From: a bacterium
GTDB taxonomy: Bacteria > Patescibacteriota > Patescibacteriia > UBA1558 > UBA10009
DNA: 64,000 bases
Direction of reading: 5' to 3'
Assembly (NCBI GenBank): GCA_018672055.1
Contig: JABHGM010000001.1
Location: forward strand, 8,884-72,883
How positions within the stretch are numbered: the stretch's first letter is position 1; every line of letters begins with the position of its first letter. Shown here in pieces: positions 3,601 to 21,468 of the stretch. A model generated the notes under the pieces. It was not told the origin of the DNA, did no database searches, and saw only the letters and a list, made by a program, of their open reading frames with translations. Made by a program: the position numbers and the translations under genes.

Positions 3601-6600
3601 TTAATTGAAATAGATAGCTCCATTATTATGTAACTGTTTAACTTGCTCATAAGTTAAAGCATAGTTATATATTCTAAAATCATCTAACATACCGTCATAT
3701 TCTTCACTACCAGTACTATCTTGGCCAACTTCAATAACATTCCCTGGATTAATATCACCCATGCTACCTGCAGACCAATCATTGGTTGCATTTAAAATAC
3801 CATCTATATATATTTTAGAAATCTCAACCACTGGATCATAAGTAAAAATAACATGATGCCATACTCCGTCAGTCACAGTTTTATTTCCATAAACACTAGC
3901 ACCATTAGAACCATCACTAATTTGTAATCCAGGAAAATCGCCACTATTATTATGGCTCCTAAAAATCCAATAACCTGTACCACCTTCACCGTAGGTTCCA
4001 ATCGTCCTGATATATCCACCATTACCATCAGACTTTTGCGTAGACTTAACCCAAACAGACATAGACCAACCATGAGTTCTAGGATCAATGTCTGTGGTTG
4101 GAGTTATATTTACTTCTTCATCATTATCTTTTTCAAAATCTAAACAACAACCTAACTTACAACTTGAACTTGAAATCCAATCAGTAGCAGGATCCATATT
4201 AGTTAAGGTTCCATTATTACCATTGTATCCACCATTTCCATCACGTGATGAATCATAGGCAGTAACTCCTTCACATTCATCAAACTTCCACCAACCAACT
4301 GGTTCTCCCCTGTTATATTCATAGGCTACTTGAGATGCAGATCTTGCATAATTATATATCTTTACATTATCGATATTTCCATTAAAAAAACTTTCCGCTC
4401 CACCATATGTTTCTTTACCGATAATAAAACTACCAGTATTATCCATATTTGCAGAACCTGGGCTACCAACTACAGAGGTTGACGATGTACCATCATCTAC
4501 TCCATTTACATAAATAGTTGGATAATATGGACTCGCCCTATCAACTACTGCTACTAAATGATACCAAACACCTTCTGTTAATACAGTATTACTTATTGTA
4601 TAAGCATAATCTGTAGTTCCTCCTGGTCCAGCATTATATATGAAATAAGGTTTTCCACTACTTAAACCAAAGTACCATTGTTCTTGATCTTCTTCTCTCT
4701 TTTCCATAAATCTACTAGATCCGCCAGCCCCTTCTTTAAACCAAAGACTAACAGAAAAAGCGTCTGTACCAAAATTAGCTGCATCAATATTACCAAAATC
4801 AACAAAATCATCAGTACCATCGAAATACAAGCAATTATTATACTTACAGTCAACACTATCTTTCCAAATAGCTCCAGTTATAGTCCCAGACGCGCTATTA
4901 CCACTGGAATCATAAGTAATACTTCCGGTCATTTCTTCAAATTTAAATTCAGCTAGAGGTGCACTACAAGCAGCGCTACTACCAGGTACACAATTATATG
5001 CTTCTTGAGAACTAGAAGCAGTGCCATCAGCATTAGTGCCAATAGAACCCAAAACTAAAGATGAGCCTTGATTATAATCTAATCTAACTTCATCTTCAGT
5101 TAAAGCATAGTTATATATCTTAACTTCATCAATTAAGCCGTTATACTCTTCTGACGAGGTTCCCTGACCAATCCAAGCATTCTCATCTAAACTTGTTGGC
5201 GTATAGCTATGTGCATAATCTGAAATATAATTACCATCAACATAAAAATAAATCCTATCAGATTCTCTTTTCATCAAATAATGATGCCAATTAGTATCAA
5301 TAGTATAATTTGTTTGATGAGTTTGCCAAGTAGAACCATCACCAGTTCCACCCGAAAAATAATTATTAGGATCAAAGCCCAAATGACCATTACTAGAACC
5401 AGCTTGCCCCAAATAAACAAACCCTGTCCAACCAGTTGAAATTGCATTTGGTTTGGCCCACACACTTATTGTAAAATCACCATCACCTATGTCGAAAGAA
5501 CTTGATTGACCCAGATCAACATAATCATCAGAGCCGTCAAAACTTAAAGCTTTACCAAATTTTCCACTATTAGTCCATGTAGGACAAGTAGAATCACCAG
5601 GACAAGTGCCAGCTAAATCACCATCATTATCACCAAAGCCATCATCATAAGCAGTATCACCAAAACCTTCATCAAATTTCCAGTAACCAAGCTTTGAGCC
5701 AACAGGAGAGCCTCCTGCCGGATGCCCAGCATTCATATCTTGAATTATCTGCTTAGGCGTACGAGCATAATCGTATATCTTTACATCATCAATTACCCCA
5801 TCTAAATAATCAGCGCCAGAACCACTTAATCTCCAACTATTACCTATCGTCATAGTACCAGCAGAAACACCATTAAATGAACCTATATTATTAATACCGA
5901 TTAAAACTCCATCAATATAAAATTCAACTTTATCATCAGGTTTATATACTCCAGTTAAATAATACCAAGTATCAGTAGTTAAAGCACTAGAAGTAACAAG
6001 ATCTGTATTATCACTAATATCTCTTGTTCCAAACCGAACTGTACTACCAGCTCTATCAAAACCATAATTATCCGTAGTATGCCCGTAAAGCATTATTGCT
6101 CCATCACTAAGCGAATTAAATTTAACCCACATAGCAAAAGTAGTTGCTCTATCTCCGGTAAAACCAATAGATGGAATAGTAGCATAATCATCAGTTCCAT
6201 CTAATTCACAACCAAAACCGAATTTACCAGATACTGTACAATCCATACCAGTATTATTAGCACCATCATTTGTTGTTGTATCATAACCATTACCAGTGCT
6301 ATCATATAGTGTTTTACTATCACCAGATACAGCTTCTTCCATTTTCAAATGTAATAAAGGTCCAGGGGCCCAGTTATATAAATCACGTATTTCACGATTA
6401 GATAAAGCTCTATTATATATTCTAATCTCATCAAGTAAACCATCAAATGAATAATTTTGTGAACCATTATTATAAATATTTCCAAGATATAATTTTCTAC
6501 CCGCCACACTATCAATGACTATATCTCCAACATAGGTACTAGACATTTCTACTCCATCAACATAAATATATGTATAATCGTCTCTTCTAACGCCTACTAT

Positions 6601-19486: not shown

Positions 19487-21468
19487 AATATTTTAAGTAA
19501 TTCTTCTTCAGATAACATAGATATATTTAACTTCTTAGCTTTACCATATTTAGAACCAGGATCACTACCCAATACTAAATAATCAGTCTTTTTACTAACA
19601 CTTGATGATATTTCTCCACCTTCATTTCGTATCTTTTCTTTAACTTCATCTCTAGTTAATTGACTTAAAGTACCAGTTAAAACAAATGCCTTGCCTTTAA
19701 ACTTGCCTTCATTAACATATTTATTCTTTTTTATTACTACACCACTCTCAAATAATTTATTTAAAAATTCTAATGATTCTTTTTCATTAAAATAATTATA
19801 TATACTCTCAGCAACTACTTCACCTATATCTCTAATGGCATTCAATTCTTCTATGCTAGTCTTTTTTAAATTAGAAAATGTTTTAAAATGTTTAGCTAAA
19901 GTAATTGCTGTTTCTTCCCCAACGTGACGTATGCCAAGAGAGTTAATAAATTTATTAAAATCAATTTCTTTAGAATTGCTTATTGATTTAATTAAATTAA
20001 CAGCTGACTTATCAGCAAAACGTTCGAGTGGTTTTAAATCACCTTCAGTTAATTTAAATAAATCTGAAGCATCTTGAATTAAACCAACGCTAATTAACTG
20101 TTCTACTATTTTAGGACCTAGACCTTCAATATAAAAACCTTTTTTAGAAACAAAGTAATTTATTTTTTCTTTTTCTTGAGCAAAACACTTATTATTGGAA
20201 CAAAAATGATTTACTTCACCTTCTTTTTTAATAACCTTGCTACCACATATTGAACAAGTCTTAGGTATTTTAAATTTCTTTTCTTTACCGGTTCTTAGAT
20301 TCTTTAAAACTTTAACTATATCTGGAATAATATCCCCTGCTTTTTGAATTATAACTGTATCACCTATTCTAATATCTTCTCTGTCTATTTCATCTTGATT
20401 ATGTAGTGTTGCTCTAGATACTATAGAGCCTGCAATTTGCACAGGCTTAAATACAGCTACAGGAGTTAATGTACCAGTTCTACCTACTTGAACTATTATA
20501 TCTTCTACTTTAGTAGTAGCCTGTTCAGCTGGGAACTTATATGCAGACATCCATCTTTCTGCTTTACCAATATGCCCTAATTTTTTTTGAAGTAAAATAT
20601 TATTAATAACTATTACTGTACCATCAGTTTGATAATCTAATTTATCTCTTTTATTCTGCCACTTCTTTAAATACTTAGCTACTTCATCTAAGCTTTTACA
20701 ATACTTACAATTTGGATTTGTTTTAAAGCCAAACTCTTTAAGTAACTCATGTACTTCTTGATGAGTTTTTTGACCAATGTCAGTTATTATCTCATAAACA
20801 AAACAATCTAATTTTCTAGAAGCAGCTACTTTTGAATCTAACTGCCTTATACTACCAGCTGCTACATTTCTAGGATTAGCATATAATTTATCACCTTTTT
20901 TCTTTAACTGATTATTTATTTTATTAAATACCTTTTTAGTCATAACAACTTCACCACGTACCTCTAAAATTTTAGGAATATTTTTACCTTCTAATTTAAG
21001 AGGTATAGCTTCAATAGTTTTTAAATTCTGTGTAACATCTTCCCCTATCTTACCGTCACCTCTAGTTGCTCCACGAACTAAGATGCCATTTTCATAAGTT
21101 AAAACAACTGTTAAACCATCAAGCTTTAACTCGCAGAAAAAATCATATTTACCATCTACTATTCTTTTATTCTTAGTTAACCATTTATCAACCTCTTCCA
21201 TATTAAAAACATCTTCTAAAGATAGGATAGGTGTTGAATGAGTAACTTTATTAAATTTAACTAATGGTTTACCACCTACTCTTTGAGTTGGTGAATCAGC
21301 TGTTAAATATTTAGGATATTTTTCTTCTAACTCAAATAATTCATGTTTCAAAGAATCAAGAGCTGCATCAGATATTTCTTGTTCATCTTTTACATGATAA
21401 AGATAGCGGTGATGTTCAATCTCCCGCTTTAGCTTGTTTATTCTAACTTTTACTTCTTTTTCTACCAT
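19483..21468 (-). CDS. ligA: NAD-dependent DNA ligase
   Basis: Adenylation motif '[10 protein letters not shown]', Zn-finger Cys cluster (CSICGSKV...HFCSNNKC), HhH and C-terminal BRCT region; 661 aa. Confidence 0.9.

Follow-up and report, generated by a model that had tools for sequence, protein, structure and literature searches.

A tandem array of three giant DUF2341-LamG proteins inserted between ligA and gatC in a patescibacterium, and its doubtful link to the neighbouring type IV pilus locus

Three giant genes lie side by side in a 64,000-nucleotide stretch of the patescibacterial contig JABHGM010000001.1 (this whole stretch is referred to as the window), behind a type IV pilus locus and the DNA ligase gene ligA. 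Their products combine a DUF2341 module with repeated Laminin_G_3 (LamG) domains. An earlier note on this DNA had proposed that they are pilus-associated adhesins standing in for PilY1. Comparison with related loci shows instead that the array is a lineage-specific 15.9-kb insertion between ligA and gatC, and that the giants are not among the conserved parts of the type IV pilus. We think that they are probably accessory, Sec-secreted, multi-lectin adhesins that bind glycans, that they belong to a large and known family, and that they are probably read through from ligA. The features of the locus are as follows.

14285..19486, minus strand: giant 3 (G3), 1733 amino acids (aa)
8939..14284, minus strand: giant 2 (G2), 1781 aa
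3601..8961, minus strand: giant 1 (G1), 1786 aa
19483..21468, minus strand: ligA, NAD-dependent DNA ligase (NF005932 match, 844 bits)
3572..3600, minus strand: spacer upstream of gatC that is conserved with its counterpart between ligA and gatC in relative L094 and forms the right-hand boundary of the insertion
1825..3571, minus strand: gatC and gatA, which come directly after ligA in relatives L094, L095, L097 and L098
21471..23978, minus strand: four minor-pilin-like genes, given as context; interaction with the giants is not implied
21471-22259, minus strand: the PilX-like gene among these four, 262 aa
23957..34761, minus strand: remaining type IV pilus locus (pilM to pilD), context only

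Every gene between about 380 and 39,977 of the window is on the minus strand. In transcription order the run starts with three secreted proteins (491, 284 and 809 aa), which are followed by pilM, an open reading frame (ORF) of 306 aa, pilO, a 110-aa ORF, pilB, a response regulator gene, pilT, pilC, four prepilin-type pilin genes and pilD. The four minor-pilin-like genes come next (GspH/FimT-like, 184 aa; PilV-like, 199 aa; PilW-like, 194 aa; PilX_N-like, 262 aa), and the run ends with ligA, G3, G2, G1, gatC, gatA and two DsbA-like genes. The three consecutive giant ORFs were found as the earlier note had given them, and its tight junctions could all be reproduced: an ATGA overlap between ligA and G3 (the ligA TGA stop lies over the G3 ATG), TAAATG between G3 and G2, and a 23-nt overlap between G2 and G1. 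The overlap with ligA makes read-through of the giants from that gene probable, and judging by these overlaps their co-transcription from ligA is plausible. Promoter and terminator scans gave no excess of sites over shuffled sequence and are uninformative on co-transcription.

The loci of relatives were found by looking up contigs that encode LigA homologues, which gave six (L094-L099). Identical LigA is present on many metagenome contigs; the nearest named relatives come from Candidatus Komeilibacteria (65-69% identity) and from metagenome-assembled genomes (MAGs) labelled 'Patescibacteria group'. LigA of the six loci is 79% (L094 and L095), 69% (L096), 66% (L099), 65% (L098, Komeilibacteria GCA_030688315.1) and 64% (L097) identical to that of the window. 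The block of pilins, pilD, four minor pilins and ligA is orthologous and kept in all six, with minor pilins that are 37-72% identical to those of the window. In the window, as in every one of the relatives, ligA stands directly behind the four-gene minor-pilin operon, at gaps of 2-170 nt. When the synteny of pilus operon and giants was checked in these relatives by tblastn with G1-G3, none of the six loci with the orthologous block held a giant. Since six giant-free loci keep the minor pilins next to ligA, the adjacency of ligA and pilus is independent of the giants, and on this comparison ligA keeps its place behind the minor-pilin operon across the lineage. This linkage of pilus operon and ligA is conserved without an obvious functional reason.

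The genes that follow ligA in the relatives are of two kinds. In L094, L095, L097 and L098 they are gatC-gatA-dsbA-dsbA, with lgt next in L094, L095 and L098, though not in L097. In L096 and L099 they are merR-ileS-recO-...-TGT, with clpB next in L099. The ligA-gatC spacer of L094 is 52 nt long, and its 3′ part aligns to the 29 nt that separate the G1 stop codon from the gatC start in the window. Conservation upstream of gatC thus runs up to the G1 stop codon, and the 15.9-kb giant array exactly fills the ligA-gatC spacer. Because the closest and the most distant relative both have the gatC-type order, the parsimonious explanation is a single 15.9-kb insertion in the lineage of the window.

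Homologous giants elsewhere are likewise seldom found near pilus genes. A profile made from a 12-sequence alignment of G3-like N-terminal modules (A3) was used to scan metagenomes and gave at least 498 matches, from which 78 loci were kept. With the loci from genomes and look-ups, this makes 92 giant-bearing loci, 27 of which include 5 kb or more of sequence upstream of their first giant; 522 kb of flank is visible in total. A genome scan with another alignment (A1) gave five loci only, its search patterns being too specific, and a first protein search returned short DUF2341 matches that led to three uninformative contexts. With all pilus proteins of the window, LigA and GatCA as tblastn queries, pilus genes were found in one of the 92 loci (L046), and a prepilin-motif scan had the same outcome. 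By chance about 1.8 loci would be expected if the pilus cluster measures ~13 kb and the genome ~1 Mb, a rough figure, as the loci come from organisms of differing genome size. The 143 nearest neighbour ORFs are mainly DUF559 proteins, nucleotidyltransferase/HepT and AbiEii toxin-antitoxin genes, IS200-like transposases, integrase fragments, AAA_14/DUF4143 and Big_1 domain proteins, and there is no pilus family among the top 25 neighbour families.

These neighbourhoods, and the copy number of the giants in them, are variable. For example, the closest homologue of G3 (P0079, 42% identity over 52% of G3, with the same domain order) is flanked by a PT-HINT giant, a transposase and glycolysis genes. 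Two strain variants of this locus (L010 and L011, 15,166-21,875) differ by a 1,877-aa DUF2341 giant together with a second copy of an 89-aa GIY-YIG ORF, which suggests that giants are gained or lost in a cassette-like manner. Arrays of 2-9 giants in tandem are frequent: many metagenome loci hold 2-4, and a Shapirobacteria MAG has three in tandem.

The domain content of the giants was largely as the earlier note had read it from the letters. Profile hidden Markov model searches placed both DUF2341 (PF10102) and Laminin_G_3 (PF13385) above the gathering cutoff in all three. For DUF2341 the scores are 25.1, 29.9 and 40.1 bits, just above the Pfam cutoff of 23.4 bits, and for Laminin_G_3 they are 449.6 (G1), 401 (G2) and 390.6 (G3) bits. 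By motif count there are six LamG repeats in G1, six in G2 and five in G3. The note had not mentioned the glycine-rich Gly_rich_2 domain of G3, nor the fibrinogen-like module GGGWT_bact (NF040941, cutoff 30 bits), which matches G1 at 55.5 bits and G3 at 60.5 bits and has no match in G2. The parts are arranged as follows.

G3, order of parts: leader, DUF2341, Gly_rich_2, LamG, fibrinogen-like GGGWT module, four LamG repeats
19355..19486, minus strand: G3 leader, aa 1-44, a hydrophobic helix and then the small-x-small site TEA↓A
19034..19354, minus strand: G3 DUF2341 module, aa 45-151, a small beta-sandwich (AlphaFold2 predicted local distance difference test, pLDDT, 88)
18314..18979, minus strand: G3 glycine-rich domain Gly_rich_2, aa 170-391
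17381..17593, minus strand: G3 fibrinogen-like YCDxxxxGGGW module, aa 632-702, matching only the N-terminal part of the fibrinogen C-terminal domain
G2: leader aa 1-46, DUF2341 aa 47-160, a region of about aa 165-400 without an assigned domain, six LamG repeats
G1: leader aa 1-50, DUF2341 aa 51-154, GGGWT aa 167-213, six LamG repeats

The GGGWT module of G1 and G3 reads YCDxxxxGGGW. Among solved structures it comes nearest to fibrinogen, ficolin and intelectin domains, but only across the first ~50-70 residues of these. The match covers about the first 50-70 residues of the 221-position Fibrinogen_C profile, so that a complete fibrinogen-related fold is not implied. An AlphaFold2 model of G3 residues 44-405, which hold DUF2341 and Gly_rich_2, has low confidence (pLDDT 59).

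The N-terminus of the giants is hydrophobic, but it is probably not the signal-anchor that the earlier note took it for. A small-x-small site (TEA↓AWW in the giants) precedes an invariant tryptophan by 0-1 residue in 36 of 36 homologues, and a structure model of the N-terminus gives a confident helix and then a beta-sandwich. This conserved AxA site points to a Sec signal peptide that is probably cleaved by signal peptidase I, although the hydrophobic region is long (about 20 residues). The class III (prepilin) signal, G↓(F/L/M)xxxE, is not found in the giants, in a motif scan that recovered six of the eight pilin-type genes of the window; the PilV-like and PilX-like genes were missed by the scan and were recognised by reading their N-termini. 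N_methyl (PF07963) has no match in the giants either.

The opposite end was also reinterpreted. The 'YNYALT..QVKQ..NNGA' end of the proteins had been listed as a feature of its own. However, the motif, which can be written (I/L)D(E/D)x(K/R)(I/V)(Y/F)N(Y/R)ALT..E(I/V)..(L/V)YN.G, recurs after every LamG repeat of each giant and is therefore an ordinary domain end. Two of the four features said to be shared by the giants thus needed correction: the hydrophobic N-terminus loses its signal-anchor label, and the C-terminal motif is not independent of the repeats. The last residues of the three proteins, ...NNGAIYFN, ...NNGAVNFK and ...NGGLVNFK, lie within a LamG repeat, and there is no LPXTG motif, transmembrane segment or other anchor at the C-terminus.

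The giants are old paralogues rather than recent copies, as judged from their divergence. G1 shares 37% identity with G2 over 1,490 aa, while G3 is about 26% identical to either beyond the N-terminal module; that module is 45-48% identical among all three. GC content at the third codon position (GC3) is 0.13-0.16, as it is in the genes on either side. What raises the overall GC of the giants is codon position 2, through their Gly, Ser, Thr and Ala content. With GC3 as in the flanks, recent acquisition from a compositionally different donor was ruled out.

A three-copy direct repeat of 62-72% identity was also seen, at 3580-3686, 8918-9024 and 14264-14370 of the window. It spans the last ~90 nt of each giant and ~20 nt past the stop codon, which hints that the duplication unit of the array may have run slightly past each stop codon.

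Giants of this type have been described before. A profile of 36 homologous DUF2341 modules matches 27,827 cluster representatives with a threshold of E <= 0.001 and 15,118 with the stricter E <= 1e-10, among them proteins of up to ~7,800 aa and one with 21 DUF2341 copies. Giant DUF2341-bearing proteins of Patescibacteria were reported with the description of Patescibacterium danicum, where adhesion was suggested (PMC11809585), and LamG or concanavalin proteins are routinely listed as candidate attachment factors in the candidate phyla radiation (CPR) and in DPANN archaea (PMC11310336, PMC7414124). Giants annotated by NCBI in Shapirobacteria, Komeilibacteria, Levybacteria, Moranbacteria, Aenigmarchaeota and Pacearchaeota have the same leader, DUF2341, an optional Gly_rich_2 or fibrinogen-like head and multiple Laminin_G_3 domains; they are 1,300-3,000 aa long and form tandem arrays. 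We therefore regard the genes of the window as members of a very large family already known from Patescibacteria and DPANN archaea, 'DUF2341 + variable head + LamG repeats'. They differ from the others in location alone: the array of the window is wedged between ligA and gatC behind a pilus operon, whereas the others usually lie in variable islands.

Rather than host-specific adhesins, the giants could be structural proteins of the envelope or matrix (for example of an S-layer-like coat or a biofilm), or carbohydrate-active proteins that capture polysaccharides with their LamG repeats as carbohydrate-binding modules. Glycoside hydrolases and S-layer proteins often contain LamG_3 and concanavalin-like modules, one PDB match (4qvs) is an 'S-layer domain-containing protein', and the model of DUF2341 is similar to accessory beta-sandwich domains found in GH38, GH66 and GH29 enzymes; the giants are also rich in Gly, Ser and Thr. 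However, domain profile searches detected no catalytic domain in the giants, and no SLH or other wall-binding module. Moreover, the family is strongly variable, linked to genomic islands and of strain-variable copy number, which is atypical for a core envelope protein. We consider such a role distinctly improbable.

A phage-related role, as receptor-binding or fibre-like proteins or as decoys in phage-host conflict, was considered as well. G3 has Gly_rich_2, LamG modules are common to the giants and to 'virion structural protein' families of phages (phrog_8510, 210-254 bits), and a Minisyncoccia homologue (P0173) is named 'tail fiber domain-containing protein'. One homologue locus (L008) resembles a mobile or phage-like region, and CPR phages with LamG proteins have been reported (PMC11310336). 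The PHROG matches were nevertheless set aside as phage evidence, for they reflect shared LamG modules only. A mainly viral origin was rejected: a search of 2.9 million viral contigs gave three relatives of the N-terminal module, whereas metagenome contigs gave at least 498. In the window the array has no flanking phage genes, its codon usage matches the host genome, and a Sec leader is unexpected for virion proteins. Taken together, this makes a phage-derived role very improbable indeed.

The pilus explanation holds that the giants replace PilY1, are loaded on the minor-pilin tip complex, perhaps through DUF2341, and are co-expressed with the pilus operon. PilY1 and PilC of proteobacterial type IVa pili are likewise large non-pilin proteins encoded at the end of a minor-pilin operon, and they are exported through Sec, as is predicted for the giants. 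A PilY1/PilC-type domain was indeed absent from the window ORFs that were scanned, as the earlier note had said, although several small ORFs lay outside that scan; to our knowledge, monoderm-type type IV pili generally lack PilY1 anyway. The giants have no beta-propeller or vWA domain, they show no fold resemblance to PilY1/PilC, and there is no conserved synteny. Nor is DUF2341 a dedicated N-terminal docking device: it is internal and repeated in some proteins of the family, and is therefore better seen as a general extracellular module.

Pilus-borne lectins offer a further comparison, among them PilC of Streptococcus sanguinis, a modular lectin-bearing minor pilin. Lectin-type jelly-rolls are common to the giants, to this PilC and to PilX1 and PilX2 of Saccharibacteria (PMC11623550), and in those monoderm and CPR proteins they serve glycan-dependent pilus attachment. 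However, those proteins are pilins, or pilin-like with an N-terminal pilin helix, whereas the giants have a putative Sec leader of the AxA type and exceed them 7-10 times in size. Nanosynbacter lyticus TM7x is the one patescibacterium in which this has been studied by experiment; there the supported pilus adhesin candidates are PilX-type minor pilins with lectin-like accessory domains (PMC11623550), and a PilX-like gene is present in the window. Another filament protein, TafC of the Tat-dependent haloarchaeal fimbria (NF052521; PMC11821415), has a LamG-type region in common with the giants. Its profile scores 227, 168 and 165 bits against them, below the equivalog cutoff of 410 bits; positions 149-363 match the LamG repeats and nothing else does, and the giants have no Tat signal.

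Several observations do weigh against our preferred reading, that of accessory secreted adhesins, and four of them favour a pilus role. First, in the window the giants adjoin the unit behind the minor pilins and show translational coupling to it. Second, there is an archaeal precedent: DUF2341 proteins (arCOG03508) occur in Methanococcus Epd pilus loci as proposed tip adhesins (Makarova et al. 2016, PMC4858521), and a screen for transformation defects in M. maripaludis had transposon hits in a DUF2341 gene of the Epd pilus locus (PMC10133366). The likeness extends to the DUF2341 module and to a location within or beside a type IV filament locus, but the Epd linkage is reported to be conserved across loci, whereas linkage of the kind seen in the window is absent from the six relatives' loci and from 91 of the 92 homologue loci. 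Third, in L046 (2553-3769) a DUF2341 gene, cut to 177 aa by an ORF resembling an IS200/REP-tyrosine transposase, directly adjoins pilM at the upstream end of pilM-pilN-pilO-pilB. Fourth, a Komeilibacteria MAG (JBLYPX010000001.1, 573,663-627,974, seen as L002, L003 and L015) has at least nine tandem giants that span at least 44 kb and are followed by merR-ileS-recO-TGT-clpB. As this run is the one found after ligA in L096 and L099, that array may also begin directly after ligA. A different difficulty concerns retention at the cell, as a cleaved giant would lack a C-terminal anchor, an LPXTG motif and a transmembrane segment. Set against the six giant-free loci, the near-chance number of homologue loci with pilus genes and the absence of a prepilin signal from the giants, the four points still leave association with the pilus unlikely in our view.

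A variant of the pilus idea deserves separate mention. In Komeilibacteria-like Patescibacteria, the site after the minor pilins and ligA might be a recurrent landing and expression site for DUF2341-LamG arrays, with three giants there in the window and perhaps at least nine in JBLYPX010000001.1. The secreted giants would then dock through the exposed DUF2341 module to the pilus tip or the envelope, and the array would be a swappable, multi-lectin host-range cassette co-expressed with the pilus. We rate this, too, as decidedly improbable.

The broader part of the earlier note was supported. The giants are predicted to be secreted lectin-fold proteins, and host-cell adhesion is their most reasonable function; it is the association with the pilus that was not borne out. 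As accessory secreted adhesins, the giants would each be exported through Sec and would probably lose the leader at the conserved AxA site, which would expose the DUF2341 beta-sandwich at the new N-terminus. Five or six concanavalin-like LamG modules would be presented, two of the three giants would add a fibrinogen/intelectin-like module, and, going by their domain families, the modules together may bind the surface glycans of another cell multivalently. Expression would most likely be by read-through and translational coupling from ligA, given the overlaps. The giants of the window and those of Komeilibacteria share similarity as a mosaic, which points to domain shuffling, and old, mosaic paralogues with recombined domains would fit a diversification of binding specificity.

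Some further observations were made around the pilus locus. A stand-alone response-regulator receiver gene (29519-29893, minus strand) lies between pilB and pilT, as it does in L097 and L098. L046 has a pilin gene between pilB and the receiver gene, which still precedes pilT. The secreted proteins of 809, 284 and 491 aa (34909-39977, minus strand), immediately upstream of pilM, have no Pfam family, and the 491-aa protein has weak PHROG tail-fibre matches. By position, these three are better candidates for accessories of the pilus locus than the giants are. A cluster resembling type IV secretion genes (53279-58645, minus strand) encodes a T4SS_pilin domain protein (54504-55529) and a TraG/VirB4-like P-loop ATPase (56741-58645). 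Finally, a 545-aa Kelch-repeat protein (40247-41884, plus strand) carries Por_Secre_tail, the C-terminal sorting domain of type IX secretion (40.8 bits). Patescibacteria are thought to have no outer membrane, and this protein stands out in a genome that is otherwise Patescibacterium-like.

Our result is mainly a correction. Gene adjacency in compact, co-directional genomes is weak evidence of function, and in this case the link to the pilus vanishes on comparison. The correction comes with a pointer to JBLYPX010000001.1, the one genome able to revive the pilus idea. Giant LamG proteins are among the main candidates for the means by which ultra-small episymbiotic bacteria recognize and hold their hosts. 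For this family the locus provides a clean, dated example of gain, in which a 15.9-kb array was placed precisely in a housekeeping spacer while nearby relatives are without it.

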